The position numbers and the translations under genes are program-made. The notes under the pieces were generated by a model. That model was given only the letters and a program-made list of their open reading frames with translations, ran no database searches and was not told the origin of the DNA. Positions 4,433-61,170 of a stretch of DNA of 64,000 nt are shown in pieces. This DNA comes from Omnitrophica WOR_2 bacterium GWF2_43_52 (GTDB lineage Bacteria; Omnitrophota; Gorgyraeia; Gygaellales; UBA12090): positions 4,912-68,911 of the forward strand of contig MHGF01000038.1 of NCBI GenBank assembly GCA_001805445.1. The letters run 5' to 3'. Within the stretch, counting starts at the first letter, position 1. Every line of letters begins with the position of its first letter.

Positions 4433-4455
4433 TGGAATTACTTTGGTTTTATTTA

Positions 4456-7200
4456 CTAAAGCCCCTTTAAGAAATTCCGTTTTCTATTAATAAGCTTTAC
4501 GATCTCCATCGCCCAGAGAGGAAACGATGAAATGCCCACCACCAAAACCCAATCAAATATCCCTAAGGCCTCGGTTTTAAATATCTTTTGCAAAAACGGT
4601 ATATAGACAACCGCCATCTGCAGGAAAAACGATACGCCTGTAGCTAGAATAAGCTTCTTATTGGTGAATATCCCTATTTTAAACAATGATTCCGTCATAC
4701 TCCGGCAGTTATAGGAATGAAATAACTGGCTGCATGATAACACGATAAATGCCGCGGTACGCGCCCGTTCAATACCTTCTTTTTCAATAAACAGCACAAA
4801 GGTAAACGCCAGCAAACTGCAAAAGGCAATAAACGCCCCTTGCGCGAGCATCAAAAATGCCCTCTGCTTAGTAACCACCTTTTCATTGATTTTTCGGGGA
4901 GGCCTCCGCATAATGTGCGGGTCAACAGAATCAACCCCCAAGGCCAAGGCAGGAAAACCGTCGGTAACCAGATTAATCCAAAGGATATGGATAGGCAAAA
5001 GCGGTACCGGCAGCCCCACCAGGGAGGAAACAAACATCACCAGTATTTCTCCGGCATTGCAGGACAACAGGTAGTGCACAAATTTCTTGATGTTATCGTA
5101 GATGCCCCTGCCTTCTTCTACCGCCGCCACAATAGAGGCAAAATTATCATCGGTAATAACCATATCCGATACTTCCTTGGTCACATCGGTCCCGGTAATA
5201 CCCATAGCCACGCCGATATCCGCCTCCTTAACCGCCGGGGCATCGTTAACGCCGTCACCGGTCATCGCAGCGATTTCTCCTTTTGAGCGCCAGGCCCTGA
5301 CAATACGCAGCTTATGTTCTGGAGAAACCCTGGCGTAGACCGGTATCCTCTCTACCTCTTTAGCAAACTGTTCATCACTAAGCCGGTCCAATTCCTCTCC
5401 GGTGAGCGCCAAAGAACCCTCTTTAAAAAATCCCAATTCCTTAGCAATGGCTACCGCGGTATTCTTGTGGTCACCGGTAATCATCACGCTTTTTATCCCT
5501 GCCCGCGCGCATTCGGCAATCGCCTTTTTCACTTCTTCTCTGGGAGGATCAATCATGGCAATTAACCCCGCGAAGGTAAGCTCACGCTCAATAAGTGTTG
5601 CTTCATAAGCCCGCGGGGCCGTATCCAGCCTACTGTAGGCCACTGCCAAGACCCTCAGCGCGGAGTTAGCCAAATCGCTGTTTACCGTAAGTATTTTTTT
5701 TCTATCATCATCAGTAAGCGCGCGCGCGCTGCCTTTTTCTTCAATTGCCGTACAATCACCAAGCAAAATATCCGGCGCTCCTTTAACAAACGCGACTAAC
5801 CCTTCTTTATCTTTTCGCACGATGGTCATTTTTTTGCGCTCTGAATCAAACGGAATTTCTTCCGTAAAAAGAAATTGTTCTTCCAGCTTTTCTTTCCATA
5901 AACCGGCTTTCGCGGCCGCGCTTAAAAGCGCTCCTTCGGTAGGGTCACCGACAATTTTATAACCTCCGTTATTTTTTTGTAATTCCGCGCCGTTACAGAG
6001 TACCGCGCAGCGTAACGCCGTATGTAATCCGGGATAATCAACCGGATTCACCGCTTTTTCATTAAACAAAAAATCTCCCTTTGGCTCATAACCGACGCCA
6101 GTTACTTTTAATAAAGCGTTGTCAGCAGAAACTACCTGCACGGTCATTTCATTCTTGGTAAGGGTGCCTGTCTTATCCGAACAAATCACTGTGGCACAGC
6201 CTAAGGTTTCAACTGAAGGCAATTTTCGGATAAGGGCATGGCGCTTGACCATCCGCTGAACTCCAAGAGCTAAGGCAATGGTTACTACTGCCGGCAGGCC
6301 TTCAGGGATAGCGGCTACCGCGAGGCTTACCGCGATAAGAAATACATCAATAAGTTTTCCGCCGCGCAGCCACTCTAAAAGAAAAACCAAACCCACAAGG
6401 ATAAAACACAAATATACTATCCATTTCCCGAATTCCTCTAACTTCTTCTGTAACGGCGTGGCCTCTTCTTTTACCTCCTGAATCATCCCGGCGATTTTGC
6501 CTAATTCTGTCTGCATGCCGGTTTCACAGACCAGCGCCCTTGCCTTACCCGCGGCAACTGAAGTCCCCATATAGGCCATATTGGCACGCTCAGCTAAAGG
6601 TATTTCCTGCCTATCGGCCCCGCCAGCGACGGGGCTGACAGGCAGGCTTTTTCCTAAAGGTAAGATGGCCTTCAATACCGGAGTAGATTCTCCGGTAAGG
6701 CTAGCCTCCTGGGTCGATAAATTAGCCGTAAGCCATACAATGCGGCTGTCTGCCGGGATATTATCACCAGCCTCCAATGCAATCAGGTCTCCCGGAACCA
6801 ATTCGTGTGAAGCGATAACACCATGCTGGCCGTCACGGATAACCTTGGAAGTAGGCGAAGATAATTTTTTTAAGGCGGCCATAGATTTTTCCGCCCGGTA
6901 CTCCTGAACAAAACCCAAAATGGCATTAAGGATGACAATGACAATAATGGCAGACGCGTCAACCCACTCTTTAAGGAATCCGGAAACCAGGGCCGCGGCA
7001 ATTAAAATCCAGACAATAAAATTCTGAAATTGGCTTAAGAAAATACTAAAAGGGCTTACCGGCTTTTTCTCTTTCAGCTGGTTCGGCCCGTATTTCTGAA
7101 GCCTTGCACGCGCCTCATCGGATGCCAACCCAAGAGACGAATTCGCTTCTAATGTTTGCACTACTTCATCAATAGTAAGATGCCACCATTGTTTAGCCAT
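4456..7200 (-). CDS. Cation-transporting P-type ATPase, type II (Ca2+/Mg2+ type), not a Cu-ATPase
   Basis: DKTGTLT phosphorylation motif and [10 protein letters not shown] hinge. [11 protein letters not shown] in TM4 is the PEGLP signature of type IIA/IIB pumps. There is no CPC motif or HMA domain. Start taken at MAKQWW. Confidence 0.85.
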
Positions 7201-10200
7201 CCGTGTCCCTCTTTGCAAAATCAACCTTCCAAATCACATAAAAAACCGGTATCACAATTAAAGACAGAATCAGGGCTGTAAACAGCCCGAAGATAATCGG
7301 CGCGGTATAGCGCTTTAAAAACTCCCCGCCAATGCCGCTGGCCCACATTGCCGGCATAAGCCCCAGGATATCCGCGGAGCAGGTCATCATTGCCGGCCTA
7401 AGGGCACGAGAGGCACCTTCGCTAATAGCCGCGTAAATATCTTCTTTAGCCTTTATTTTCCCCTCATTTTTGCGTTTGTCATACGCAACGGTAATAAAGG
7501 TAATAACAAGAGCGCATAAGGCCGCCCCGATGCCAATAACCTCCATCATCCCGGCATAGACGGCGATGGATTTATTAAAACCCAAAAGCCTGATGCTCCA
7601 GGCCGCGCCGATTGCGGTAAAAGGCATTGCCAGCATAATAAAAACAGTAGAAACAACTGACTTGAAATTAAAATAATATAATAGGAAAATAATCAAAAGT
7701 GTGGCAGGGATAAAAATACCCAGCCTCTTTTTCACCCGCTCCATATATTCATACTGCCCGCTCCATGAAAGCGAATATCCCGCGGGCAATTGCACCTTTT
7801 CCCGCACCGCCTTTTTGGCATCCCGGACATAACTGCCAATGTCACGGCCGGCCATATCCACATAGACATAGCCGGAAAGCATCCCGTTCTCATTCCTAAT
7901 CATTGCCGGGCCTAAGCTTACCTTAATATCCGCTAATTGCTCTAATGGCACCTGAGCCCCACTCTTGGTGGGAACTAAAACCCGCCTTAACTTATCCAAA
8001 TCATCGCGCAATTCCCGGGCATAACGCAGATTCACCGGATAACGCTCCCTGCCTTCAATGATAGTAGTGATATTTTCTCCCCCTACCGCCGACATTATCA
8101 CCATTTCGGCTTCCTCTATACTCAAGCCGTAACGAGCCAGCTGCTGGCGCTTTAAATCAAAGTCTACAAAGTACCCTCCCGCGGTGCGCTCGGCATAGAT
8201 ACTACGCGTACCCGGAACATCTTTTAACACCATCTCAAGATGCTCACCTACTTTCTCAATCTCTTTTAAATCCGAACCGAAGATTTTTATCCCCACCGGT
8301 GTGCGCACACCGGTAGTCAACATATCAATCCGGGCCTTAATCGGCATAGTCCAGGCATTGGTAGTGCCGGGAAACTGCATGTGATCATCCATCTCAGCAG
8401 TCAACTCTTCAAAGCTCATCGGCCGCTTGAAAGCAGGAAATGATTTTCCGAATAGAGGAACCTTTCTCCACTCTTCTCTGGGCTTCAAAATCACGGTAGT
8501 TTCCATCATTGAAAAAGGGGCAGGGTCAGTAGAGGTTTCGGCACGTCCGGCCTTGCCAAAAACCCTTTCTACCTCAGGGAAACTCTTTAAGATTTTATCC
8601 TGGGCCTGAAGCAGTTTAGAGGCCTCGGTAACTGATAAACCCGGTAAGGTAGTCGGCATATATAGTATGCTTCCTTCATATAAAGGCGGCATAAACTCTG
8701 AGCCTAATTTTAAAAAAACCGGAACAGTCACAGCCAAAACCGCGATTAATATCAAGACCACAACCTTACGACTCCTGAATGCCCAGGCGAGAACTTTTTT
8801 ATGGCATTTAGCCAGGAAGCGTGAGGCAAAATGTTCATCCAATGCCCGGGGTTTAGTCTTACGCAGAAATATCATAATTAAAGCCGGGACTAAAGTAATA
8901 GAAAGCACTGCCCCGAAGAAAACTGAAAATATCTGGGTAGCAGCCATAGGCCGAAAGAGCCTGCCTTCCTGTCCGACTAAGCTAAAAAGCGGCAAGAACC
9001 CGATAACCGTAACCATAAGCGATGAAAATATCGGTGCTCCGACCTCTTTCATCGCCTCAATCATTACCTGAGCGCGCTCACCATTGATCTTTCCTTCTCG
9101 CAGGTCGCATAACTTTGAATGGACATTTTCAACCAAAACTACCCCCACATCCACCATATCTCCTATAGCCAACACTATGCCCATAATTGACATTATATTT
9201 ACGGTAAGGCGCATCCCCAGCATCGGAATAAAGGCAATCAATGCCGCGGCCGGAAGAAGTAGTATCGGCATCATTGCCGAAGGAATATGCAAGAGGAAAA
9301 AAATAATCATTACCGCCACAATCAGGAAGTCTTCAATGAGGACCTCGCTAATAGTGTCAATTGATTTCTTGATTAAGTCAGTGCGGTCATAGGCGGTAAC
9401 TATCTTTACCCCCTTAGGAAGTGACGGCTCTATTTCTTTTAGTTTTTCCTTAACCCTTTTAATCACCTCTAACGCGCTTTCACCGTGGCGCATCACCACA
9501 ATCCCGCCTACGCAGTCTCCTTTGCCGTCTAATTCTGCCACGCCCCGGCGGATATCCGGGCCTAAGGAAACATTCGCGATATGCTTTATCAAAATAGGTG
9601 TTCCGCTTTTGGCATCCACTCCTACCACAATCTCTTCTAAATCCTTAACGGATTTAGCATACCCCCGGCCCCTGACCATATACTCAGTCCCGGAAAATTC
9701 CAATAGCCGGCCGCCCACATCATTATTGCCCTTACGGATGGCCTCTGCCACTTCAGTAATAGGGATGTTGTAAATCAGGAGTTTGTTAGGGTCAATGTTG
9801 ACTTGATACTGCCTGACAAAGCCGCCGACAGTAGCTACCTCAGCCACACCGGGAACACTCTGCAGGTAATAACGCAAATACCAATCCTGAAAGGTGCGCA
9901 GGTCAGCTAAAGAGTTCTGGCCGGTTTCATCCACCAAAGCGTATTGAAAAACCCATCCCACACCGGTAGCATCCGGCCCCAATTCCGTGCGCACACCATC
10001 GGGAAGACGAGAGGTGATTTTAGAAAGATACTCTAAGACCCTGCTCCTTGCCCAATAGATGTCAGTCCCGTCCTGGAAAATGACATACACATAAGAATAG
10101 CCGAAATCCGAGAATCCCCGAATGGCCTTAACCTTAGGCGCGCCCAATAAGGCAGTTACTATAGGATAGGTTACCTGGTCCTCCAGGATATCCGGAGAGC

Positions 10201-13232: not shown

Positions 13233-13254
13233 TTCTCACTTCTCATTTCTTGCC

Positions 13255-13539: not shown

Positions 13540-13596
13540 AGCCTTACTTTTTTAATTTCTCATTTATAACTTCCAACTTCTCATTTCTATAAGAGA

Positions 13597-13625: not shown

Positions 13626-13750
13626 GAGAAAAAAAACATCTTCCTCTCTTTAAAGATTTACCGTAGTTTGCGGTTACTAGAGATAAGGGCACTGTAGGAT
13701 AAAACCTTCCTTGGTTTCTTTAAAAGCGGCCGCCTGTAGCAGGGGCTGCC

Positions 13751-14389: not shown

Positions 14390-14416
14390 TCATTACCCTA
14401 GACAAATGCGGGCACA

Positions 14417-15031: not shown

Positions 15032-15059
15032 GGCTCCTCCTTGTGCTGGCCTTACTTTT

Positions 15060-49389: not shown

Positions 49390-50007
49390 CTATTTTAATT
49401 TATCTCCCACCTTACCCACTAAATCCTTTCCTGGGGTAAGAGTTTTCTTACCCGGTTCCCATTTTGCCGGACACACATGTACCGGATTTTCCCGGACATG
49501 TTTAAAAGCCTTGAGCTTCCGCAAGAGTTCATCCGAATTCCTCCCCACGGGGAAAAAATTCACCTCTGATGCCATAAGCTTTCCGTCAGGATCAATAATA
49601 AACGTCCCCCTCAAATCCAAACCGCTTGTTTCATCATACACCCCAAAAGCCCTCGAGACATTGTGCGTAGGGTCTGCTGCCATGGGATATTTAATATCCG
49701 AAAGCAGTTTTTCCGCAGCATGCCAGGCATAATGCACATAATGGGTATCAGTACTCACTGACACGAGTTCAGCCCCTTCTTTCTTTAAGAGTTCATATTT
49801 TTCGCCCATATCCGCCAACTCCGTAGGGCAGACAAAGGTATAATCTGCCGGATAGAAAAACAGAATCAGCCAATTGCCTTTCTTGGCAATATCTGAAAAT
49901 TTCACCTTGCCAAAATCTTTTTTATCAGGTAAATATACATCCATCTCAAAATCCGGAATCTTATGTCCTATGCTTAATACTTTTAATTGCTGTTCTTCCA
50001 TCATCAT
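49390..50007 (-). CDS. Peroxiredoxin (typical 2-Cys AhpC/Prx1 type)
   Basis: FYPADYTFVCPTEL peroxidatic Cys motif and C-terminal VCPAKW resolving Cys. Confidence 0.85.
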   Translation of the reverse strand: MMMEEQQLKVLSIGHKIPDFEMDVYLPDKKDFGKVKFSDIAKKGNWLILFFYPADYTFVCPTELADMGEKYELLKKEGAELVSVSTDTHYVHYAWHAAEKLLSDIKYPMAADPTHNVSRAFGVYDETSGLDLRGTFIIDPDGKLMASEVNFFPVGRNSDELLRKLKAFKHVRENPVHVCPAKWEPGKKTLTPGKDLVGKVGDKLK

Positions 50008-50024
50008 CCTCCCTAGTATAAAAA

Positions 50025-50531
50025 TCAGGTTAATTGCTTTATCATCTCTCTGCAAAATGCCGGAAGATCATACGGGGTGCGCGAGGTAATTAAATTACCA
50101 TCCACTACCACCTCTTTATCCAGAAACTGCGCTCCCGCGTTTACCACGTCATCCTTGATTGCCGAAAAACTGGTCGCCTTCTTGCCTTTGAGTATTCCCG
50201 AGGATACTAAGACCCATCCTCCATGACAAATAGAGGCAACTACTTTGCCTTGAGCATATAAATCCTTGACGAAATTATTCACCTCCTTATACCTGCGTAA
50301 AATATCCGGAGCATATCCTCCAGGGATAACCACGCCGTCAAAATTTTGCGCCCGGGCGTCTTTTATAGAAAGCTCCTCAGGCGCGGGGTATCCTTCCTTG
50401 CTTTTGTATTCTTTCTTTTGCCCTGTTCCAACGAATACAGCCGTAATGCCTTCTTCTATCAGGCGAAAGTAGGGGTACCAAACTTCTAATACTTGGTACT
50501 GATCCTCAACCAGTATGGCTATTTTTTTCAT
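50025..50531 (-). CDS. DJ-1/PfpI-family protein
   Basis: VVASICHGGWVL nucleophile-elbow cysteine motif. Confidence 0.8.
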   Translation of the reverse strand: MKKIAILVEDQYQVLEVWYPYFRLIEEGITAVFVGTGQKKEYKSKEGYPAPEELSIKDARAQNFDGVVIPGGYAPDILRRYKEVNNFVKDLYAQGKVVASICHGGWVLVSSGILKGKKATSFSAIKDDVVNAGAQFLDKEVVVDGNLITSRTPYDLPAFCREMIKQLT

Positions 50532-50532
50532 C

Positions 50533-51384
50533 TTATACCCCTAACTCATCAATGATGCGCGCCATAATAAAATCATTTTCGGTAAGGCCGCCGGCGCTAT
50601 GCGTCGTAAGAGTAACTTTTAATTTATTGTAATTTATAGTCATTACAGGATGATGCCCCTGCTCTTCAGCAATGATAGAAATCAAGTCCAGAAAATATTT
50701 TGCCTCCACAAAATCCTTATACTTAAATTCTTTAGTGATTTTTTTATCTTCTACCAATTGCCAGCCCCGATAACGCGCAAGCAACCTTTCAATTTCCTCC
50801 TTAGGAAGCGCCGGAACTGCTCCTTCGCAGGCCTTACAATGCGCGGGAAGCTCTTCTTTTTTGCCATACTCTGGATTCTTGATTACCCCTTCTAAGCTCC
50901 TGAGGACGGCCTCATAATCCGGGGAAGCAGTTACTTCTTCCACTATCTGAATATAGCGTATCACATCGTTTTTATCTATGACAATCACAGCGCGGGCTAA
51001 AAGATTAAGCTCTTTTATCAACACCCCGTAATTTATGCCAAAAGACGAAGCCTTATAATCAGAGAACAGGGTAATATTTTTTATATCGTAACTCGCGCAA
51101 AACCTCTTTTGGGCAAACGGCAAATCCTTGCTTATGCCTACAATAACACTATCAGGGCTAAGCCCTGAAGCTCTTCTATTAAACTCCTTTACCTGCATAT
51201 CACACACAGGAGTATCTATTGAGGGGAAAGAAGTGATTACCTTTACTTTCCCCTTCAGATCAAAAAGGCTTATTTCTTTTAAGTCGCCGTTTACTACTTT
51301 AAAATTGGCAGCGGCATTGCCAACCGAAATCGCCCTTCCCACAAGGGTTAAGGGATTTCCTTTAAAGGTTACTTTTCTCATCAC
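50533..51384 (-). CDS. Fusion of thiol peroxidase (Tpx) and pterin-4a-carbinolamine dehydratase (PCD/DCoH)
   Basis: N-terminal SFPSIDTPVCDMQ is the Tpx peroxidatic Cys. C-terminal AEEQGHHPVMTINYNKLKVTLTTH is the PCD [EQ]-x3-HHP motif. Confidence 0.75.
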   Translation of the reverse strand: MMRKVTFKGNPLTLVGRAISVGNAAANFKVVNGDLKEISLFDLKGKVKVITSFPSIDTPVCDMQVKEFNRRASGLSPDSVIVGISKDLPFAQKRFCASYDIKNITLFSDYKASSFGINYGVLIKELNLLARAVIVIDKNDVIRYIQIVEEVTASPDYEAVLRSLEGVIKNPEYGKKEELPAHCKACEGAVPALPKEEIERLLARYRGWQLVEDKKITKEFKYKDFVEAKYFLDLISIIAEEQGHHPVMTINYNKLKVTLTTHSAGGLTENDFIMARIIDELGV

Positions 51385-51398
51385 CGCGGCTCCCTTCC

Positions 51399-52181
51399 TT
51401 ATAATTTATGGAAATACCCTGCCACCAATTTTCCTAAAAAGAATCCGGTTCCGCATGATAGCGCGCCTATACCCAATGTTTCTAAACCGCTAAGAAACCA
51501 ATTAATTTTTGTCACCTTAGACTTAGAAACCCCTAAGATAAAAAGAAACAACAAAACAAAAGTAGCGGAAAAAAATAACGCGTTAGATACATTGTCTATT
51601 ATAAAAAACGGAACGAGCGCCGGAAGCGCGCCTATGACAAATGAAGCGCAGGAAATAACACCTATCTCAAACGGGTTATCAATCAACTCTGAAGTTATGC
51701 CTATTTCTTCCTGCACCATAAACTTAAGCCAGCGCTCTTTATCCGCGGTAATACGCGTTACCCCTATCTCTTGTTCCTCTTTGGTAAAACCCATATCTTC
51801 AAAAATCTCGCGTACCTCTTGAATTTCCCGCTGGGGCATTTCTTCTATTTCCCGCCTTTCCCGTTCAATCTGATTCTCAAAAAAATGCTTCTGGGCTTTG
51901 GTTGAGATATACGCGCCAAAAAATATTGCAAGGGACCCCGAAACAATCTGGATGACGCTTGCTAAAATTATTCTCTCTTTGGTCACCAGGGCAACCGACA
52001 CACCGGCGATAAAAGAGACGGTGGTAACTAATCCGGTATCAACAGCATAGACGATATCCCTGATTATCCTGCCTTTTTTACTATGCCAGCTTTCACCATG
52101 CCAGCTTTTGAGCCTTTCGGCAACAGAGCTTTCTAATTGCCGCATCGGGTTATTTGTTTCTGCCTCGCGTAGGCTCTTCAT
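51399..52181 (-). CDS. VIT1/CCC1-family (DUF125) iron/manganese transporter
   Basis: TM helices flank a glutamate-rich cytosolic metal-binding loop (ERERREIEEMPQREIQEVREIFE). Confidence 0.65.
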   Translation of the reverse strand: MKSLREAETNNPMRQLESSVAERLKSWHGESWHSKKGRIIRDIVYAVDTGLVTTVSFIAGVSVALVTKERIILASVIQIVSGSLAIFFGAYISTKAQKHFFENQIERERREIEEMPQREIQEVREIFEDMGFTKEEQEIGVTRITADKERWLKFMVQEEIGITSELIDNPFEIGVISCASFVIGALPALVPFFIIDNVSNALFFSATFVLLFLFILGVSKSKVTKINWFLSGLETLGIGALSCGTGFFLGKLVAGYFHKL

Positions 52182-52368
52182 AGGTAAGTGCCCTAATAAT
52201 GCCTATAGTTGCGCCCGTATCATCGGTTGTCGCGCAATCGCTCACCGAAAACACCTTCTTAATGGCATTTTCCTTAATAAAACCATTCACCTGCTGGTCT
52301 AAGCTAATCAATTCCTTATGAGTCTGGAATATTTTCAACTCATTGGTAAACGTCTTTACTTTTATCAT
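52150..52368 (-). CDS. Small hypothetical protein (72 aa)
   Basis: ORF only; no motif recognised. Confidence 0.3.
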   Translation of the reverse strand: MIKVKTFTNELKIFQTHKELISLDQQVNGFIKENAIKKVFSVSDCATTDDTGATIGIIRALTYEEPTRGRNK

Positions 52369-52440
52369 CGCTAGCTACCCTCCTTTTTTATCATGTCACG
52401 CTCATACCTCAAGCCTTTTGGTTATCCTCATCTTTCCCTA

Positions 52441-52815
52441 TTATTGTGTATGGCAAAATGCGGCTTTAATTCCCCTACCCTCTAATTCCCGTAATTTCGC
52501 CTGGGAACAGCGCCGGCATAAAAAAACAGCCTTGGCGTCTGAACGGTCGTAATTTTCCGTCTTAACCAAGCGCCATAACGCTCCTGGGTTTCCGCAAGAT
52601 TGGCAGGGGCTTTCTTCTTTTACCTGCCAAAGTTCTGTGATTTTATTTTTCTTGGCATTAAAAATAAACCTATCTACCCAAAAGAATATCGCTGAACCGA
52701 TAAGGTTGGCAATAATCGTAGAGCTTATCCCCATGCCCAGATTCCGCACGACCAGCCATAAAATTGGCGTGCTTAACTGCCATCGAAAAGCATAGATGAT
52801 AAATTTTTTAAACAT
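52441..52815 (-). CDS. Hypothetical membrane protein with a C-terminal CxxC...CxxC zinc ribbon (GtrA-like N-terminus)
   Basis: Three TM helices, then CQSCG...CRRCS. Confidence 0.35.
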   Translation of the reverse strand: MFKKFIIYAFRWQLSTPILWLVVRNLGMGISSTIIANLIGSAIFFWVDRFIFNAKKNKITELWQVKEESPCQSCGNPGALWRLVKTENYDRSDAKAVFLCRRCSQAKLRELEGRGIKAAFCHTQ

Positions 52816-53011
52816 TGTTAGCCTCTCCCAACTTTTTCTTCAATTCTTCAATTTCTGCCTCTAACTCCTCAATCTCAATCCACATCGCGGCCGGATCATT
52901 GTGTTCAAACTTCCCGCACTTCCTATCTCTATAGGAAGGAAGCCTCTTTTTCATATCATCCAGTTCTTTTACCTTAGCCTCTACTATTTTTGCAAGTTCT
53001 GCAGTATCCAT
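52808..53011 (-). CDS. Small hypothetical coiled-coil protein (67 aa)
   Basis: ORF in operon position upstream of the GtrA-like gene, with only a 4-nt overlap to it. No motif. Confidence 0.3.
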   Translation of the reverse strand: MDTAELAKIVEAKVKELDDMKKRLPSYRDRKCGKFEHNDPAAMWIEIEELEAEIEELKKKLGEANNV

Positions 53012-53381
53012 AGAAATGTATCCTGTGATATTCTACTACCATCCCCGAACGCCTGCTTATTGCTTTATCTAAATCAGCCAAGAGAGGCTCATCTAAATCA
53101 AAAATCTGTTTGCAGTCAGTGCAGAAAAAATGGTAGTGGTTACGTATATCCGCGTCATAATGGCTGCTGTATTTGCCGCAGGTTAATTCTAAGACCTTAC
53201 CTTCCTCTTTAAGAAGGTTCAAATTCCTATATACCGTCCCCATACTAATCGCGGGAAGGCGCCTTCTTACCATATGAAAAAGCGTATCCGCCCTTGGATG
53301 CGTTTTTACCTTGGTAAGCTCTTCTAGAATAATCCGCCTTTGCTTGGTATTCCTTTTTTTATTGTTAGCTTCTTTTTTCAT
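52974..53381 (-). CDS. Fur-family transcriptional regulator (PerR/Fur-like, structural Zn CxxC x2)
   Basis: KQRRIILEEL...HPRADTLFHMVRRRLPAISMGTVYRNLNLL, then CTDCKQ...CRTCKN. Confidence 0.8.
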   Translation of the reverse strand: MKKEANNKKRNTKQRRIILEELTKVKTHPRADTLFHMVRRRLPAISMGTVYRNLNLLKEEGKVLELTCGKYSSHYDADIRNHYHFFCTDCKQIFDLDEPLLADLDKAISRRSGMVVEYHRIHFYGYCRTCKNSRG

Positions 53382-53382
53382 C

Positions 53383-53412
53383 TTATTAGTAATAGTAACT
53401 ATTATTACTAAT
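53383..53412 (-). promoter_or_regulatory. Candidate Fur/PerR box: 28-bp AT-rich palindrome overlapping the Fur-family gene promoter
   Basis: The minus strand reads TTGACA-N17-TATTCT, followed by ATTAGTAATAATAGTTACTATTACTAAT immediately upstream of the ATG. Confidence 0.5.
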
Positions 53413-53582
53413 AGAATAACAAAAAGATAAACTTTGTCAAGAAAAATTTTGGGAGTTTCCTACTAGACTGTTACATTAGTTTGCAGTAGTCATTTATTTA
53501 CACCTGCGACGAGGTATCACCTCGTCGCGAGGCGATACCTCGTAGATGAACGCAAGGTTATCTTTTTAGATTTTTGAAACCA

Positions 53583-53717
53583 TTAGGAACTCAAAGGCTG
53601 ATTTAGGGGGGATTGGAGAGTTATAGGCAGGGCAGTGAAGTCAATGCCGCCTAATTCTTTTTGCTCTTCTAAAGCCGAAGCGGCAGTTTCTCCTGGTTTC
53701 TGGTTTCTTTTGGACAT
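53583..53717 (-). pseudogene. Orphan 44-codon ORF/fragment homologous at nucleotide and peptide level to the C-terminal region of the giant protein (GGIDFTALPITLQSPLNQP versus GGIDLTALPIVTQSALNQP)
   Basis: Direct comparison of 53594-53660 with 55120-55175: ggctgatttaggg...ggcagggcagtga(a/g)gtcaat(g/c)cc(g/a)cc. Confidence 0.4.
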
Positions 53718-53887
53718 ACGTATTATGCGCCACTATTCCCTGGGGCACAAAGTTGTGGGTGCCCTCAACTTCAATATCGTAAACCTAGAGCCTACCCAGA
53801 GGCTCAATTTTAACGATTGGCTCGAAGATAACTTTACCTTGACTTAAATTGCCTGATATGTTATTCTTTTTCTTAAGGAGTAAAAAA

Positions 53888-54301
53888 ATGAAAGCAAAAT
53901 CATTATCCAAGGTATCTATCGGAAAAAATCTTGTGAAGTTAGAGAAGCTGACAAAATTTTCAACTGTTTCTGCCAAAGAGCTTAAAAATGCCGGATTAGC
54001 CTCTCCTAAAGATTTCAAAGCTGGAGTAATAACAGATAAGGGCGGCTCTCCTAAGTATTTTATATTTGACACATATTCGCTCTGGGATATGCTTTGTGCC
54101 TTTGATGCGAAATTTGAGGAAAATGCTCCGGCCAAAGAATATGTATACCGCAATCCTGTCGGCTGGCTTATTGACGCCATTGAGACCCATCTGCCGGTCA
54201 ACCCTAAATTAGCGCTAAAACTAAAAAAGGGCATTGATGAAGCCCGGAAGTTAGGGCTGGTTCCTTTTGAAAAAATCAAGCATGAGTTAGGATTATCCTG
54301 A
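53888..54301 (+). CDS. Putative antitoxin of the RelE/ParE pair (138 aa, Phd/YefM-position protein)
   Basis: SD AAGGAG 8 nt upstream of the ATG; 8-nt gap to the RelE gene. These are the only plus-strand genes in the window. Confidence 0.5.
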   Translation: MKAKSLSKVSIGKNLVKLEKLTKFSTVSAKELKNAGLASPKDFKAGVITDKGGSPKYFIFDTYSLWDMLCAFDAKFEENAPAKEYVYRNPVGWLIDAIETHLPVNPKLALKLKKGIDEARKLGLVPFEKIKHELGLS

Positions 54302-54309
54302 CCAGCAAG

Positions 54310-54573
54310 ATGATTGAAAGTTTTGAATTTACCCCTGTCGGCGAACGAGACTTCAAGGGTCTCTCCCGCCAACTGCAGAACAGAATTATTGAAAAAATAG
54401 GACTCTATATTTCCTCTCGCAATCCCCTGCATTTTGCCAAACCCCTGGTAAATCTTCCACCAGCTACCCATAGATTTAGAGTTGGAAAATATCGCGTTTG
54501 TTTCTACATTAAAGGCCTTAATATCATTATTGACGGAGTTGACACCCGCGAAGACGCCTATCGCAGAAGATAA
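54310..54573 (+). CDS. RelE/ParE-family type II toxin
   Basis: FEFTPVGERDFKGL...RFRVGKYRVCFYIKGLNIIIDGVDTREDAYR matches the RelE/ParE fold signature. Confidence 0.75.
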   Translation: MIESFEFTPVGERDFKGLSRQLQNRIIEKIGLYISSRNPLHFAKPLVNLPPATHRFRVGKYRVCFYIKGLNIIIDGVDTREDAYRRR

Positions 54574-54750
54574 ATCTCCTTCTACCGCCTGCCTGCCTAT
54601 CCGGCAGGCAATCTCCTCCCCCTCTTTTATCTGGCCCAGCTTCGGAGCCTGCGGCAAGAGATTTGCCGTCAGGTGAATAGGGTAGGATTATAGCTGCTAC
54701 TTATGGCAGGAACGCCCCTTCAAATCTATATCTATTCGTGGTTTTAAATT

Positions 54751-57700
54751 CTATTGCGCGCTATAATTCGCCGGCTCCTTGGGCATAACGGTAATTTTGC
54801 TTAAGGCAAACTGCACATCCCGCGCGGGCTTATCCGACTCAAGCAAAATGAGCATCTCCTTTAAGGCTAAAGCAGTAGACACTCCCCTGTCCTCTTCTAA
54901 CCTCAATATCTCCGCAATACAGCCAAGTATTCTACCTATCTCCTGAGCATAGCCTTCTTCTTTTTGCAAAGATGAAGATGCTAAAGCATACTCCCTTATC
55001 CTTTCGCTTGAAGGCATAATCCCGGCATTGACCATAGCCTGAATCTGTTTTAGCTCGTTTTCCAAGTTGATATTGAGGTTTAAGGCCGAGCTGGCTATAG
55101 GCATATTGGTTATCAAGGGCTGATTTAGGGCAGACTGGGTTACGATGGGCAGGGCAGTGAGGTCAATCCCACCAGGTTTATTCTGTAGTGCAGAGGAAGA
55201 GGCAGGTTCAAGCGACTTTAGCTCAAGGGGCGAGGCGGCGGCTGCTTGTAATTCCAGAGGCCTTCCTTTTATCTCTAAAAGCTTGGCTTTTAATATCCCT
55301 TTTTCTGCTTCGGAAATTCCGCGCTTAGGCGGAAAACGGGTGGTAAGAAAAGATATAAGTTTTTCTATCTCCTTCTCTTCCCAATCAAATATTATTTCCT
55401 CTATATTCTTTAATACCGGACCCATCGCTATGTCTCCTAAACCATCCGCGGAAAATAATTCTTTACTTATTTTCTTACGGTCTTCTTCGGATAAACGTTT
55501 TTCTCTCTGTTGGTTTAGGCTTTCCTTAATTTCTTCAGCAGAAGGTTTAAAGTCTTTGAGATTCTCTTTAGTAAGAGTATATGGCATACTGAATTCTGTC
55601 TTAACATCAGAGTTTGATGAAGAAAAATCAAAATAAAGGTCTGTATCCAACGTATTCTTTTTCACTGCGGTTATTCCTTCTTGTCCCCCGTATTTCAAAG
55701 CTTCTTTTCCTGCGGATGATGCATCCGAGAATGAAACCGCGGGCACCATATCTTTTAACAAAAGCTCTGCCAGCCCCTCAAAAACCACCTTGTTTAGGTC
55801 CAGGTTGCTGGCGTTCCAAAGCGGCTGGACTACCACCCCTTGAGGGGTCAATACCAAAACAGCATTAGCTATCATTTTGTCATTGCCATTATATATCCTT
55901 AAGAATAAAGCATTAGTTTCAAGGGCATGAATCATGGGCATCTGATTGTTGCTCTTATGGGGAGCGAAACAGCCCGGAATGCCCACCGCGTAAGTATCTT
56001 TTAAGAAATCCTGGACTATTTCTACGGTTACCTTTTCTGAAGAAATACCTTTGCTTTTATACACCTCTTCAAATCTCTTTGTTTCTCCAAGGATACGTTT
56101 TACTGAATCTTTTACATCTTGCGATAATTTCTCGTTATTAAGAAAATATTCTTTGGCAAAAGCTTCTGCTTCCTGGTGGGAAGTTAGGCCTTTCTCTCTA
56201 TACGAAGCACCTATCTCAATATTATGCATATCGGCAAGCTCAATTAACTGCTCGTTCTGTTGTTTCATCTTATCCGTAATGTCTTCCCCGATGCCTTCCA
56301 TGGGAAGGGTCTTTCTTATGCCTTTATCCCAAAGAAGCGAGCTGTAGCCGCTCTTAAGAAGTTCCGCGTAAACTTCTTTGTTCCACTCTGCTTCTTTAAA
56401 AAGCCACTGGTTGAATCCTTTGGTGTCGCGAAATTCAAGCAGTTTATTAATTGAGAGGGCCGCTTTTTCACATATCCCCGGATACTCACCTTGTAAGCGA
56501 AAATAGAGGCCCACAAAATTACCTATATACGTAGCCATGTAATGAGTATCTAAAAATTCCTTTTCTTCTTCTGTTAAATCTCTATTGATTATCTTCTTAA
56601 ACGCATCGGACTTTACTTGCCGATTAATGATACTCAATTCGCTTAAGAGCTTCTTATCGCCTATACCATCGTTCTTGCTATAGCGGGCTAAAATATCATC
56701 TATCTTCTGGCTGGCATTGTATTCTAACGAAGCACCTTTAAGAATAATCCCTGTTTCTATCAAATAACCCATGGCTCCCCTTAATACTTCGTATTTTTTC
56801 TCAAGGTTCAGAAGGAGCTTTACCTGAGGAGCCATGGCCGGGATGCTGGATAATATATCATCATCCATGGCGGATTTAATAATATCTAAGAAAGAGGTAT
56901 CTCTTTTTCTTAAAAAATCCTCGAAAAAAGAAAGAGCAGGAACCATCTCCGCCTTGCCAAGATAATTAATTATTTCTATAATTTCGCTACGCTCTTTATT
57001 GATAAATTCCACTACCTTATCCCTTAATTTCTGTTCAGATAGGCCAAAAAGGTCTATTATAGATTCGGCTATCAGCTGACTTTCAGGTTTAACAATATTT
57101 ATTAAGGCATTAAGAATATTAACCTTTAGCTCCGGCGCGATTCCTTGATGCTTAAAGACGCTTTTCACGAATGTAGGTATATCCGCTCCAGACTCTTTGA
57201 TAACCTCATTCAAAGAGCCGTCAAGAATTGGCCTGATAAGGAAATCCGGCTGAGCCAGGGAAGAGAATATAAGCCTTACCTTAGCGGCAGAGGGTGAAAG
57301 TTTGGGGTAAAAAACTTCAAGAATTACTTCCAGATTATCAGCAAAAATATTTCTTTCTCCTAACGCATTCATGATAGCTGTTTTATAGTCCTCAGAAGCT
57401 GAGAGAAAATCTTTTCCTAACTCGGGGAGGAGTCTTACTACGGCTCTTCGCGCTTCTTCTCTTGCTGAATCAACAATGCCCTGATTGAATTGTCTTACCA
57501 ACATGTTCATAAAAATGGTTTTTAGGGCATCCGAGGCTGAGGGGAAGTCTTTTTCTAACTGGGGAATAAGTCTGGCGAACGCTTTTTGTGCCAGCTCATA
57601 ACGGCTACTATGGCTTATTAAATCTATAGCCTCAAGGATGGTGATTTTGTAAGTGTCGTATGAAACTGAGGGAAAATCTTCTTCTGTCCGGGGAATTAGG

Positions 57701-60700
57701 CTCCTTAAAGCTGTTTCATTCTTCAACTTTATTAAGTCTTTAACAATGTCAGCCCTGCGAATTTCAGAGAATAGCCTAAAAATACGCGCTAAAGCCTCTT
57801 CTACTACTTTTTCATCAATATAGTCATAGCCCCCATAGCCCCCCGCGCTTAGTGCATATACTAAATCATTAAAGATGGCGGTTTGCCTGACTTCTGAAAC
57901 TAAGGGGAAGTCTTTTTCCATCGGGGGAATGAACTTTAAAAAGACTTCCCTGCAGAGATACATCTCATTACGGTGAAGATTATCTTTTAAAAACTTAATG
58001 ATTATATCTTTAAAGCCTTCTGATAATATAGAGTAGTCTTCTACTAATTGCAGGAGGAATATTTCTAAGCTTTTGTTTTGACCACTACTCCCGTCTGTTA
58101 ACTTATTAAAAATGACGATTTTCTGGGCCTCAGAAGATGAGGGGGTAATACGCACTAAAGATGGATGCTCATACTTTAACTCATCAAGGATAACTTTTTG
58201 ATAGGCTTCTGAGGCTAGAGGAAAGTCTTTTTCCATCTGGAGGTGGATATTTTCTAAGCTTACGCTTGTTACTCTTGGTATTTGTTTTAATTTACCAACG
58301 TCGGATTTAATAACAAAATTTTTAACAATATCAAGGATGGCTTTCTTCTGGACTTCGGAGGACAGGCTAAAAATACTCGTTATTAGAACACCAGTATCGG
58401 AAAGATGATGGTCTCTAGTAGTCGTTTCCATTAATAAGGTTTTAATTGTGGTAGTTCTAATATGCTCACTAGCTACACTTAAAATGCTCCCTAAGAACTC
58501 TGCTGTTTTTCTATTTTCATAGAAATCTCTTATTAACTTATCAACAATGTCGTTTTGTTGAACCACAGAGGCAAGAGGGAAAATACGCGCTAAGGATGCG
58601 TACTGATACCTTAACGCATCAAGGATGAATGTTTTATAGGCGTCTAAGGCTGAAGGAAAGTCTTTTTCCATCTGGGGAATAAGTCTGGTTAAGACTTCTC
58701 CTGTTGCGGAGTTAAAAGAACTCACACTATAAACTCTTCTTAAAGTATTATGGATGGCCATTTTGTAAACCTCATTAGAGGTTGAGAGAAAGTCTTTTTT
58801 TAATTGGGGACTGAGTCTCTCTAAGGCTTTAATTGCTGTTTTTTGTCGTTCCGAACCATAAGTAATAGCCATATCTCTAAGAATATCAAGAAAGGCGGTT
58901 TTCTGATACTCAGAGGTTGAGGGAAGAATACGCTCTAAGGCGTCAGCTACTGGTTGAAAAACATCATATTGAACCAACTTTACAAAAAGATTAAAGCTGG
59001 CGGTTTTATAATCATCATTAGACATTAAGGGAAAATCTTTTTCTAATTGGGGGATAAAACTCTCTAAGGCTTTTATTGCTTTAGAACTGTTAGTTCCTAT
59101 AAGAGCATTAATGATGGTGGCTTTCTGGGCCTCAGAGGCTGAAGGGAAAATACGCGCTAAGGATTCGTGCTCATGCCTTAACTCATCAAGGACGACTGTT
59201 TTATAGGCTTCAGAGGCCAAAGGAAAATCTTTTTCTAATTGAGGAATGAGTCTTGCTAAGGGTTCTTTTGCTGTGTGAGAATACACCCGCCTATTAACTT
59301 CTCTTAAAGCATTCAAGATGGCTATTTTGTGGGCATCAGAGGATGAGGGAAAAATACGCTCTAAATCCCTGACTGGCGCTTTAAAACCAGTAAAAGCAAC
59401 TCTTTTTAAGAAACGAATGCGGAAGGTTTGATAGGCTTCAAAGGTTGAGCGAAAAATACCCTTGGGTTTTATAGAAACGATTGCATCTGGCCGAAGAGGT
59501 ACTGTATCCAACGGAGAGATAGTGTCTGCTTTTTCCTGAACCGCCGACGAAACCATCTTTAGATCTACCTCCGCAGGCAAACCTGTAACCTTAAATGGCC
59601 CTATCGTATTGCTTCCCATGGGCAATTCTCTTTCTGCCTTTATCACAACTACAGGACTGCCGGCTACAGGTACATCTCCTGGGACCTGTGTTGTAAGAGG
59701 GATCCCTACCATTAAATTTAACCCCCCGCTCATATAACTTCTGATAGTCTGTCCGTAGGCTGTAGGTATGGTAGCTTTGTGGTTATACTCGCCTTGCTTA
59801 AATGACTTCCGGTATTGTTGAAAGTAGGTCTGCTTGTCATAAGGCTCTTGTGAGGTAAGGTTAGTTAAGTCTCCTGAGTCTATATCAGGGACGGTTCTCC
59901 CAAGTAAACTACTACTTTCTGAGAACCGTCCCTTATACTTCTGCTTAAACCATTGTGCCAGGATTAATGAGTAATAGACTTGCCTAAGATTAGCGTATCT
60001 TTTGGAAGTGTTTATCTCTTTAGTAAGCTTGGGGATGATCAGCTCTCTGATAAGCTGAGATGAGTATTCATTAAGCTGTTTTTGGAGTTCGTCTTTAAAG
60101 TTGTATTGCGGTGAATCTTTGAGATAATCTTGCTCCAACATTACCTTTAAGGTTGCTTTGTAGATATAGGCACTTGTGGTGAGCGCAATCGAACCATTGT
60201 CTTGGGATTCGCGGATGATAACTTCATCCGGCACGATCCATGGCCGGGTTAAGGTGGGGATAGTAATGTTGCTGCTTGTGCCATAGAGCTCTTCGGCTTT
60301 TTGATATAGCTTATCCCAGTACTCTTTGCCTTCTCTGGTTTCTGGTGAGGTGAATTGCGCGGTGTCTTTCTTCAGCTGGAGGTCTGCTTCAAGAAGTATC
60401 TTACCTACATCAGTCTGGGCTAAGTCATCATCAATGATATTATCAGGGGCATCGGGCCTTAAATTTACCCAGAAACTTGAGTTTGGCAGGGTTAAGCCGA
60501 TGAAGAAGTATTTAAGCAGTTCATTAGTAACTTGTTCCAATGCGAGTTTGGAATCAGGTGGCGCGCTTCCTTTGTCTAAAAGTACGCTGAAGCTATTATT
60601 GAGATTATCATAGCCTATAGAGCGTAGATGTAAGGGACGGAATTTATCCTGATTAAAACTATTGGCATGTGCTTGCTTAAAATATCCAGAGATATCTATT

Positions 60701-60789
60701 GTTTGAGCTACCTGGGCAAAGCTCGATTGCTCAAAGATAAATAAAATGGATAAAATGAGAGATAGTATTTTTTTAGGCTTCTCTGGCAT
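54751..60789 (-). CDS. Giant (2012 aa) secreted protein with an internal array of at least 15 roughly 36-40-aa alpha-helical (HEAT/PBS-like) tandem repeats
   Basis: Signal peptide MPEKPKKILSLILSILFIFEQSSFA. Repeat consensus about LxRLIPQLEKDFPxASEAYKTxILxxL. The N- and C-terminal regions (roughly 450 and 600 aa) are non-repetitive with no recognised domain. Confidence 0.7.
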   Translation of the reverse strand: MPEKPKKILSLILSILFIFEQSSFAQVAQTIDISGYFKQAHANSFNQDKFRPLHLRSIGYDNLNNSFSVLLDKGSAPPDSKLALEQVTNELLKYFFIGLTLPNSSFWVNLRPDAPDNIIDDDLAQTDVGKILLEADLQLKKDTAQFTSPETREGKEYWDKLYQKAEELYGTSSNITIPTLTRPWIVPDEVIIRESQDNGSIALTTSAYIYKATLKVMLEQDYLKDSPQYNFKDELQKQLNEYSSQLIRELIIPKLTKEINTSKRYANLRQVYYSLILAQWFKQKYKGRFSESSSLLGRTVPDIDSGDLTNLTSQEPYDKQTYFQQYRKSFKQGEYNHKATIPTAYGQTIRSYMSGGLNLMVGIPLTTQVPGDVPVAGSPVVVIKAERELPMGSNTIGPFKVTGLPAEVDLKMVSSAVQEKADTISPLDTVPLRPDAIVSIKPKGIFRSTFEAYQTFRIRFLKRVAFTGFKAPVRDLERIFPSSSDAHKIAILNALREVNRRVYSHTAKEPLARLIPQLEKDFPLASEAYKTVVLDELRHEHESLARIFPSASEAQKATIINALIGTNSSKAIKALESFIPQLEKDFPLMSNDDYKTASFNLFVKLVQYDVFQPVADALERILPSTSEYQKTAFLDILRDMAITYGSERQKTAIKALERLSPQLKKDFLSTSNEVYKMAIHNTLRRVYSVSSFNSATGEVLTRLIPQMEKDFPSALDAYKTFILDALRYQYASLARIFPLASVVQQNDIVDKLIRDFYENRKTAEFLGSILSVASEHIRTTTIKTLLMETTTRDHHLSDTGVLITSIFSLSSEVQKKAILDIVKNFVIKSDVGKLKQIPRVTSVSLENIHLQMEKDFPLASEAYQKVILDELKYEHPSLVRITPSSSEAQKIVIFNKLTDGSSGQNKSLEIFLLQLVEDYSILSEGFKDIIIKFLKDNLHRNEMYLCREVFLKFIPPMEKDFPLVSEVRQTAIFNDLVYALSAGGYGGYDYIDEKVVEEALARIFRLFSEIRRADIVKDLIKLKNETALRSLIPRTEEDFPSVSYDTYKITILEAIDLISHSSRYELAQKAFARLIPQLEKDFPSASDALKTIFMNMLVRQFNQGIVDSAREEARRAVVRLLPELGKDFLSASEDYKTAIMNALGERNIFADNLEVILEVFYPKLSPSAAKVRLIFSSLAQPDFLIRPILDGSLNEVIKESGADIPTFVKSVFKHQGIAPELKVNILNALINIVKPESQLIAESIIDLFGLSEQKLRDKVVEFINKERSEIIEIINYLGKAEMVPALSFFEDFLRKRDTSFLDIIKSAMDDDILSSIPAMAPQVKLLLNLEKKYEVLRGAMGYLIETGIILKGASLEYNASQKIDDILARYSKNDGIGDKKLLSELSIINRQVKSDAFKKIINRDLTEEEKEFLDTHYMATYIGNFVGLYFRLQGEYPGICEKAALSINKLLEFRDTKGFNQWLFKEAEWNKEVYAELLKSGYSSLLWDKGIRKTLPMEGIGEDITDKMKQQNEQLIELADMHNIEIGASYREKGLTSHQEAEAFAKEYFLNNEKLSQDVKDSVKRILGETKRFEEVYKSKGISSEKVTVEIVQDFLKDTYAVGIPGCFAPHKSNNQMPMIHALETNALFLRIYNGNDKMIANAVLVLTPQGVVVQPLWNASNLDLNKVVFEGLAELLLKDMVPAVSFSDASSAGKEALKYGGQEGITAVKKNTLDTDLYFDFSSSNSDVKTEFSMPYTLTKENLKDFKPSAEEIKESLNQQREKRLSEEDRKKISKELFSADGLGDIAMGPVLKNIEEIIFDWEEKEIEKLISFLTTRFPPKRGISEAEKGILKAKLLEIKGRPLELQAAAASPLELKSLEPASSSALQNKPGGIDLTALPIVTQSALNQPLITNMPIASSALNLNINLENELKQIQAMVNAGIMPSSERIREYALASSSLQKEEGYAQEIGRILGCIAEILRLEEDRGVSTALALKEMLILLESDKPARDVQFALSKITVMPKEPANYSAQ

Positions 60790-61170
60790 AGTTTCTGGTA
60801 ATTGAGGGAAAGTGTGTGGGTATATCAGCTATAGTAATTAAAATATACCCTATAGAAGAGGTACTTTCAAGGCTAAAATAGGGGTTTTGGGAAAGCGCTT
60901 TCAGAACCGCAGATTGCACAGATAGGAGGAAAAACGATTGCTTAGCAGACTACGAGGATAAAGTGGAATTTCAGGAAGAGATTTTTAGGGCCTTTAGATG
61001 CGTGGTTTTAACCCGGATTTTACATTAGGTTTTGAGGAAAATGGCCTAAATCTTTGTCAGAACAAGGCTTGCGAGCAAAACGCAGTTATGGCAAAGAGTT
61101 ATAGACATTTTACCAAAATCCTAATGCAAATTCAGGGTTTAAGGCTGTTTTATTTTGGGCAGGGAAAAAT

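Follow-up and report, generated by a model that had tools for sequence, protein, structure and literature searches.

Probable debris of a second giant-protein gene beside a RelE-like toxin-antitoxin cassette in an Omnitrophota genome

Orphan cassettes that join a C-terminal toxin region (CT) to its immunity gene reportedly accompany the polymorphic toxin loci of contact-dependent growth inhibition (CDI, with the protein CdiA) and of Rhs. In these systems a short motif (VENN, PxxxxDPxGL) precedes the variable toxin domain, and each orphan consists of a toxin domain together with its immunity gene. The silent donor cassettes of the pilS, vls and msp2 type hold variable sequence between conserved flanks and stand in arrays. 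Inteins and bacterial intein-like (BIL, or Hint) domains are said to occur in hypervariable secreted proteins, and Hint domains have reportedly been found upstream of toxin modules, at the module boundaries of polymorphic toxins. Here we analysed a stretch of 64,000 nucleotides (nt) from Omnitrophica WOR_2 bacterium GWF2_43_52 (contig MHGF01000038.1; the whole stretch is called the window), in which a segment from the 3' region of a giant gene, encoding 2012 amino acids (aa), recurs downstream within an open reading frame (ORF) of 44 codons, with a toxin-antitoxin (TA) pair between the two copies. A reading of this DNA made without database searches (the sequence-only reading) had likened the layout to the displaced C-terminal cassettes of polymorphic-toxin-like or antigenically variable surface proteins, stabilised by the TA module.

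Our results indicate that the downstream copy (the orphan) is probably the non-functional remains of a different gene of the family to which the giant protein belongs, being neither a spare cassette nor a gene. The locus resembles CDI and Rhs loci in that a short conserved motif recurs downstream of a very large secreted-protein gene in the same orientation, and in that the parent family is modular and recombining. The logic of CDI and Rhs loci is nevertheless reversed, because in this family a conserved domain stands behind the motif, the C-terminal module being the constant part of these proteins and the middle the variable one. Unlike the CDI and Rhs orphans, moreover, this one ends two codons past the motif, with neither a domain nor an immunity gene, its nearest genes are the RelE pair in the opposite orientation, lesions flank it, the recombination breakpoint of the locus is not at the motif, and such orphans do not recur in related loci. 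With silent donor cassettes it shares the condition of a promoterless partial copy downstream of an expressed surface-protein-like gene, but the 64 kb contain only this one extra copy, which is made up of conserved motif sequence alone. It is also like a pseudogene fragment beside a mobile type II TA module, since it is 5'- and 3'-truncated, frameshifted and stop-containing, next to a foreign-looking RelE pair of opposite orientation at a breakpoint. From ordinary gene decay it differs in no essential respect, the parent family being undescribed, and we conclude that the feature is ordinary gene decay beside an inserted type II TA module. The features on which the argument draws are these (window coordinates):

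54751..60789, minus strand: giant gene, 2012 aa, with a signal-peptide-like N-terminus, an N-terminal domain, a unique middle and a C-terminal module (ORF list)
55113..55173, minus strand: copy A of the direct repeat, the GGIDLTALPIVTQSALNQPL motif that opens the C-terminal module of the giant protein (repeat search, shuffles, motif alignment)
54799..55065, minus strand: predicted helical C-terminal domain of five helices, about residues 1909-1997 (AlphaFold2, module profile)
54727..55026, minus strand: recently exchanged tract, running from the 3' part of the C-terminal domain through the stop codon to the end of a 25-nt spacer (mismatch map, three-way alignment)
53842..54726, plus strand: TA cassette, a segment without homology to family loci, with a promoter-like site, two ORFs and a 153-nt tail
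54310..54573, plus strand: RelE-like toxin, 87 aa (PHROG and PDB matches)
53888..54301, plus strand: putative antitoxin, 137 aa, starting with ATG, co-oriented with the toxin and ending 8 nt before its start
53722..53841, minus strand: C-terminal splicing region of an intein (Hint), blocks F/G, 5'-truncated (PF14890, TIGR01443)
53670..53754, minus strand: junction element NFVPQGIVAHN-TYV with a linker rich in serine and alanine, homologous to internal junctions of family genes elsewhere
53583..53717, minus strand: 44-codon orphan ORF, made up of frameshifted linker, motif, two residues and stop (ORF list, alignments)
53591..53651, minus strand: copy B of the direct repeat, the relic's GGIDFTALPITLQSPLNQPL motif, which no C-terminal domain follows (repeat search, shuffles)
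53507..53543, no strand: palindromic hairpin between the relic and the Fur gene (inverted-repeat search)

The repeat search of the window recovered the two copies as a direct repeat of 61 nt (53591-53651 and 55113-55173) with 47 of 61 positions identical (77%) and a spacing of 1522 nt. Since the best value in 200 first-order Markov shuffles of the window was 36/61, chance is excluded for this repeat; the next-best ungapped match of the giant-gene copy to the rest of the window reached only 33/61. Translated in frame on the minus strand, copy A corresponds to residues 1873-1892 of the giant protein and agrees with copy B of the orphan in 16 of 20 residues, and these two are the only GGID[LF] motifs in the six frames of the 64 kb. 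The sequence-only reading was hence right that a 3' segment of the giant gene is repeated 1.5 kb downstream in the same orientation, that the second copy lies in a 44-codon ORF, and that this copy is an orphan fragment of the C-terminal motif, coming as it does from the C-terminal junction of the family. Pairwise DNA alignment of the two copies gave no convincing similarity outside about 61-70 nt, and the further similarity between the giant gene's 3' end and the downstream DNA that the reading had proposed as a check was not found beyond about 61 nt. Aligned in register, the orphan copy matches seven family genes elsewhere (in the loci L027, L008 twice, L028, L029, L007 and L018) at 49-51 of 61 positions, and the adjacent giant gene at 47 of 61, which argues that the orphan is not a copy of its neighbour.

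Examination of the DNA immediately upstream of the orphan motif identified the remains of an intein end. In the frame of the family genes of L007 and L032 the stub reads QGKVIFEPIVKIEPLGRL, a stop codon, VYDIEVEGTHNFVPQGIVAHN and then TYV, and it has the C-terminal signature of inteins, namely blocks F/G ending in His-Asn and followed by Thr (VYDIEVEGTHNFVPQGIVAHN, then T). The last part of the Pfam profile PF14890 (Intein_splicing; positions 115-155 of 155) matches the stub with E=6.3e-8. For TIGR01443 (intein_Cterm), which has a curated cutoff of 15.6 bits, the stub reaches 35.3 bits, and the intein segments of the DnaB, RFC, GyrA and RecA models match it as well. As in inteins and BIL domains, the blocks are canonical and lie within a member of a variable secreted-protein family; unlike in these, about 40 residues are left, an in-frame TAG interrupts them (53785-53787) and the N-terminal splicing half is missing, no N-terminal intein region (blocks A/B) being present in any minus-strand frame of 53560-54790. 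Because this half is absent, because of the TAG and because the frame changes before the motif, so that the stub (about 40 codons) and the orphan ORF are in different frames, the stub is an intein remnant and not an intein. A split-intein C-fragment gene was also considered and rejected, as the stub has an in-frame TAG and lacks a start codon, and the end of the giant gene is not an N-intein.

The junction that follows the stub has counterparts in other genomes. Positions 53754-53699 are 86% identical to L007:13108-13163 over 56 nt and 90% identical to L032:103-141 over 39 nt, in both cases inside family genes, and QGIVAHN followed by TY and a serine-rich linker occurs in frame between different cargo units in L007:13100-13170, in L018:2950-3010 (residues ~80-95 of protein P0011) and in L032:95-145. 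Only the last 9-13 intein residues (QGIVAHN-TY) persist in these three loci, where no intact copy was seen, and among the four genomes with the junction element a recognisable block F is found only in the window copy. Such junctions at cargo boundaries recall the Hint domains at module boundaries of polymorphic toxins, and they may be either processing sites or just recombination scars. From the junction to the motif, the alignment of the relic with L007 contains two 4-nt gaps, which indicate a frameshift in the relic linker.

The orphan ORF itself has few of the properties of a gene. Its ATG is an out-of-frame triplet across the Thr-Tyr-Val codons that follow His-Asn, and these codons are conserved in L007, L018 and L032. 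By inspection no Shine-Dalgarno (SD)-like sequence was seen upstream of the ATG, a word-index search among 5.8 billion proteins returned no homologue of the 44-aa product other than itself, and the stub joined to the orphan as a protein query did not yield an intact ancestor. The codon score of the orphan ORF was -0.08 bits per codon, compared with +0.21 for the giant gene. Behind the motif there follow two codons, the stop, the hairpin and the Fur promoter, and no match to the C-terminal domains of the family was found downstream of the orphan in 53382-53590. Set in such debris (a truncated intein end, an in-frame TAG, a frameshift and an out-of-frame ATG), the orphan is not the displaced working cassette that had been suggested.

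The identity of this debris depends on the family to which the motif belongs. When the last 209 residues of the giant protein were used as query, the matches differed in their N-terminal parts and all ended in a GGIDL motif, a variable linker and a conserved domain of about 90 residues. A profile of this C-terminal module gave at least 1159 matches at E<=0.001 (871 at E<=1e-10) against 1.84 billion cluster representatives, the family clusters being counted at 50% identity and belonging mostly to Omnitrophota metagenome-assembled genomes (MAGs). Among the 150 matches listed, the module in proteins that are not truncated reaches the C-terminus or stops a few residues before it, and the listed proteins span 81-6439 aa. 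In the motif GGIDxxxLPxxTQ the residues GGID, LP and Q hardly vary within the family. Because so many unlike proteins end in the same module, the GGID motif is a family-wide C-terminal signature and not a peculiarity of the giant gene's 3' end. Many of the long matches also share a signal-peptide-like start (LLCFLLIFEQSGFAQ) and an N-terminal domain of about 400 aa (with FRPLHLR and TLTRPWIVP), and have unrelated middles, or cargo, of 0.1 to more than 5 thousand residues; several copies are present per genome (for example, L014/L023, L017/L019 and L022/L026).

The giant protein carries both ends of this architecture, the N-terminal signal and domain (FRPLHLR ... TLTRPWIVP) and, at its C-terminus, the motif with the helical domain of about 90 aa. 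The orphan has the motif only, with neither the N-terminal part nor the C-terminal domain, and it is therefore a fragment and not a member of the GGID-motif family. The conserved N-terminal domain of the giant protein covers about residues 1-420, the unique middle, with helical repeats, residues 420-1850, and the conserved C-terminal module the remainder; only residues 1-420 and 1855-2012 are held in common with any relative retrieved, the middle matching none of these. Residues 9-406 are 59% identical to the first family gene of L008, and the alignment of N-terminal domains shows many invariant columns. No family was found for the giant protein in Pfam or NCBIfam, and eight family members scanned against Pfam gave nothing above the family cut-offs, with sub-threshold hints of a nucleotidyltransferase and a DOT1-like methyltransferase in their middles. 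AlphaFold2, run on an alignment of 35 sequences, predicts the C-terminal domain as five helices with a confidence (predicted local distance difference test, pLDDT) of about 90 and leaves the motif and linker non-helical and of low confidence (pLDDT of about 50-60). A Foldseek comparison of the C-terminal module with the PDB returned none at E<=0.001, only generic helical-bundle noise, and the model of the N-terminal domain (mean pLDDT 49.8) was too poor for a fold search. Full-text literature searches for the motif strings, and term searches in papers on Omnitrophota giant proteins, found no description of the family.

Some minor features of the family were recorded as well. At residues ~354-375 of the giant protein (59665-59730, minus strand) there is a weak look-alike of the C-terminal motif (SGGLNLMVGIPLTTQVPGDVP compared with GGIDL-TALPIVTQSALNQP), and GGI[DN][FL] occurs at residue ~325-338 in several relatives (P0014, P0082, P0093, P0132 and P0152). 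Given this look-alike at the end of the N-terminal domain, the variable middle may have related motifs on both sides. The middle of the giant protein (57347-59462, minus strand) contains about a dozen degenerate helical repeats of ~70 aa (ARIFPSASEAQK and LIPQLEKDFPLASEAYKT), which correspond to the DNA repeat families D1-D7 at 60-80% identity.

The three-way alignment of the window with L007 and L008 placed the debris in relation to a second gene. L007 and L008 come from two genomes related to that of the window. In L008 a family gene (4455..8456) is followed by a tandem family gene from position 8495, and L007 is arranged likewise. The three sequences are identical or nearly so through the stop codon of the first gene and a spacer of 25 nt, and the homology then breaks at about 54726 of the window, 15 nt before the ATG of the second gene of L007 and L008 and at the very point where the TA cassette starts. 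Towards the giant gene the similarity is equally uneven: from 55026 to 54727 the window differs from gene 1 of L008 by about 9 mismatches in 300 nt (97% identity; L007 is also close), and from 55173 to 55027 by 33 mismatches in 147 nt (78%), with a sharp drop at 55027. Identity to L008 at third codon positions is 0.97 in the last 87 codons, 0.51 in the motif and linker and 0.50 in the N-terminal domain. This abrupt step from 97% to 78% and the contrast at third positions show that the 3' end of the giant gene is a recombination mosaic, in which a recent tract starts within the C-terminal domain and extends as far as the TA cassette. When L007, L008, L009, L018 and L032 were compared with the rest of the window no other matching region was found by which genome-wide relatedness could be calibrated.

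The loci compared have peculiarities of their own. The tandem second gene of L008 (8495-12046) is broken into three ORFs of 300, 480 and 262 aa, and L009 has a fused version of 1449 aa. L007 belongs to an apparently frameshift-rich long-read assembly; its gene 1 carries an insertion of ~310 nt in the C-terminal domain (10734-11043), and its gene 2 (11286-15710) an extra unit of ~200 aa containing HExxH.

We also searched for orphans of this type in 34 other family loci, 19 from genomes and 15 from metagenomes. Neither motif-only nor motif-led orphans were present in these loci, all extra copies of the motif lying in full tandem paralogs, and the further orphan tips that the sequence-only reading had suggested looking for in relatives were thus not encountered. 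A metagenome scan with residues 1400-1860 of the giant protein returned no orthologous loci. The 2012-aa protein occurs in identical form on 18 contigs, including those of GCA_001804385.1 and GCA_003499645.1. Over 2.4 kb (52900-55300) six contigs (L001-L006) are 100% identical to the window, coming from Rifle groundwater runs, the Joint Genome Institute (JGI) metagenome 3300009296, a UBA MAG and others, and on account of this identity we take the debris to be fixed in a widely sampled clonal population.

The segment between the two motif copies has one limit at about 54726, where homology to L007 and L008 stops, and the other between 53842 and 53887, near the start of the intein match at 53842. 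Its second ORF encodes a protein that matches PHROG 1213 ('RelE-like toxin') with E=1.2e-8 over positions 6-84 of 87 and PDB 3g5o_B (Rv2866/RelG of M. tuberculosis) with E=9e-4; the match to Pfam ParE_toxin (E=0.02, 15.9 bits) is below the cutoff of 23. On this homology the product of 54310..54573 is predicted to be a RelE-family toxin. The 137-aa ORF before it had no match in Pfam, NCBIfam, PHROGs, the PDB or plasmids, and shows a Phd/YefM-like pattern by eye only; a promoter-like TTGACT-17-TATTCT lies upstream of it at 53839-53867. The pair resembles type II TA modules of the RelBE and ParDE kind in having an 87-aa RelE-like toxin 8 nt behind a partner gene of 137 aa, itself preceded by a promoter-like site, and is unlike them in that the upstream protein matches no known antitoxin family. 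Of the antitoxin-RelE pair that had been read between the copies, the toxin and the operon-like arrangement are therefore supported and the antitoxin lacks a family match. That these are the only plus-strand genes of the window holds approximately, as each of the other plus-strand ORFs of at least 100 aa overlaps a larger minus-strand ORF, but a 58-aa plus-strand ORF near 61000-61170 is also called by some pipelines. Neither a mobility gene nor a target duplication was identified for the cassette. Because the TA pair starts where homology to the tandem paralog ends, it looks like an insertion that destroyed the neighbouring gene, and there is no indication that the module stabilises the locus, as had been proposed.

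Antisense to the whole TA operon there is a stop-free ORF of 290 codons (53785-54657, minus strand), whose protein is in the annotation of GCA_003499645.1; other pipelines call the TA genes in its place. No family match was found for it, and it shares its frame with the stop of the giant gene and with the intein stub, apparently by coincidence. Codon scoring cannot separate the TA genes from this ORF (0.077 compared with 0.084 bits per codon), so that the strand assignment of the interval rests on the RelE homology. The 290-aa ORF is best explained as a shadow ORF that arises opposite the reading frames of the TA genes.

The family, the lesions of the relic, the homology breakpoints and the mosaic 3' end are direct observations, and we infer, as the most likely order of events joining them, that the TA cassette took the place of most of a tandem paralog, whose remnant decayed afterwards. 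A tandem paralog would once have stood behind the giant gene, and illegitimate or homology-facilitated recombination would have put the cassette of about 0.9 kb, in opposite orientation, where the paralog's 5' part as far as the middle of a Hint domain had been. The remainder would then have decayed, gaining a stop and a frameshift and losing the C-terminal domain. The surviving scraps would be about 40 intein codons, a frameshifted junction and linker and 20 motif codons, the 44-codon ORF being an accident of the debris.

Several observations weigh against this reconstruction. The window locus, running from an HD-GYP regulator to Fur, is not syntenic with L007 and L008, which sit upstream of nuo, so that the ancestral tandem pair is deduced from the shared spacer only. 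No undamaged gene with Hint domain, linker, motif and C-terminal domain from which the relic could descend was found, which makes the reconstruction indirect. The QGIVAHN-TY junction also occurs inside a protein of the gene-1 type (L018), and the relic could for this reason be the giant gene's own displaced 3' end. The relic is 80-90% identical to its counterparts in L007, L008 and L032 and the adjacent 3' tract 97%, which implies that the two have different histories. The six contigs, being 100% identical, provide no population evidence on selection. Finally, the 44-aa ORF is called as a gene in the annotation of GCA_003499645.1 and by JGI, and its codon statistics are weak, with only 45 codons scored.

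Whether these observations favour a different origin for the orphan has to be judged from the same data. If a Hint junction and linker, followed by a GGIDF motif and C-terminal domain, once formed the end of the giant gene, recombination could have brought in a new module and spacer, possibly with the TA cassette, and the old end would have been pushed downstream to decay. This would agree with the recent 3' exchange seen in the last ~300 nt and the 25-nt spacer (97% like gene 1 of L008, with ~78% upstream of 55027 and N-terminal third positions of ~50%), with the fact that the high-identity tract stops exactly at the boundary of the TA cassette, and with the QGIVAHN-TY junction of the gene-1-type L018. 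We nevertheless regard it as unlikely, because the breakpoint lies inside the C-terminal domain (~55027) and not at the motif as in a CDI or Rhs crossover, the relic has no C-terminal domain and hence nothing to swap, comparable displaced ends are lacking in the 34 other loci, and identity between the relic and its counterparts is just 80-90%; in L007 and L008 the tandem arrangement is seen directly, with the second gene behind the shared spacer, which is a simpler account of the layout. A local duplication of the motif region of the giant gene on insertion of the TA cassette, in the manner of a long target-site duplication, would explain why two direct copies flank the segment that holds the cassette. 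It is scarcely credible given that the copies are 77% identical, whereas recent events leave 97% as in the adjacent 3' tract, that the orphan is nearer to seven copies in other genomes than to that of its neighbour, that it is joined to an intein and junction segment without counterpart beside copy A, and that copy A lies 360 nt inside the gene and not at the cassette boundary.

The two remaining alternatives give the orphan a function. In the full model of the sequence-only reading it would belong to a polymorphic-toxin-like or antigenic-variation system, as a functional orphan or a silent cassette that the TA module holds in place. The notion of modular and recombining cassettes survives in part, for the family has constant ends, unrelated middles with weak enzyme-like matches in some of them, several copies per genome and, here, a mosaic 3' end. 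What does not survive is the cassette itself: the orphan consists of 20 motif residues, two more and a stop, conserved motif only, without any variable, toxin or other alternative domain and without an immunity-like gene; the sequence immediately upstream is truncated at its 5' end, frameshifted and interrupted by an in-frame stop; the C-terminal module is the conserved and not the variable part of the family; a single orphan is present in 64 kb and none in the 34 other loci; and the TA pair is oppositely oriented and sits at the homology breakpoint. We consider this model extremely improbable. A genuine small protein of 44 aa that displays GGIDF...LP...Q, and that might for instance compete with the large proteins for a factor recognising their motif or act as a decoy for it, is very improbable too. 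The ORF is intact and starts with ATG, two pipelines annotate it as a gene, its motif is well kept (16/20 identical to the copy of the giant protein), and in the structural model the motif would be linear and disordered, as partner-binding elements are. Set against this are an ATG that lies out of frame across conserved Thr-Tyr-Val codons of L007, L018 and L032, the lack of an SD-like sequence, of homologues among 5.8 billion proteins and of a positive codon score, and a position amid other disabling lesions.

With the orphan read as debris of a tandem paralog, the flagged feature is ordinary genome debris and opens no new mechanism, and its recognition as such keeps the locus from being filed as a polymorphic-toxin or antigenic-variation system. 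A moderate value lies in the parent family, which is very large, mostly from Omnitrophota and without a Pfam or NCBIfam model, and which combines constant ends, free middles, a strict linear motif, intein-like junction relics and measurable mosaicism; uncharacterised as it is, it could merit study of its own. A wider reading, which we put forward with considerable doubt, is that the GGID family comprises Omnitrophota-wide secreted proteins that swap cargo and resemble polymorphic effectors. Their N- and C-terminal modules might serve as homology arms for exchange of the middle, Hint-type His-Asn-Thr junctions and serine-rich linkers might mark cargo boundaries that were perhaps once cleaved, the orphan, the stub and the 97% tract might be footprints of exchange, and the TA cassette might have travelled on flanking family homology. 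Should the family prove to be a cargo-delivery system of these bacteria, which are ultra-small and possibly predatory or dependent on hosts, its cargos and its export or processing machinery could be sought by way of the motif and the C-terminal domain.

Two short proteins related to the module were also looked at. In L044:183-2672 an ORF of 141 aa (P0067) consists of the C-terminal module alone, 33 nt behind a methyltransferase ORF and in a different frame, and is followed by a protein with helix-turn-helix (HTH) and Fic domains; this single case may be a stand-alone module or a split cargo-module gene. The short module-only protein P0153, checked as a possible orphan, was rejected as a contig-edge fragment.

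An Rfam scan of 53300-54800 gave nothing credible. The hairpin between the relic and Fur has a perfect stem of 9 bp (CGACGAGGT-ATC-ACCTCGTCG) and shares part of its sequence with a second palindrome. It occurs only once in the window, has no T-run after it, received no terminator call and had no Rfam match. Downstream of the relic (49390-53381, minus strand) lies an iron and oxidative-stress cluster with genes for Fur, a VIT1-family iron transporter, a fusion of AhpC/Prx with pterin dehydratase, DJ-1/PfpI, a 1-Cys peroxiredoxin and desulfoferrodoxin, and upstream of the giant gene there are genes for an HD-GYP response regulator, NifU, a nitrite/sulfite reductase-like protein and hemerythrin.

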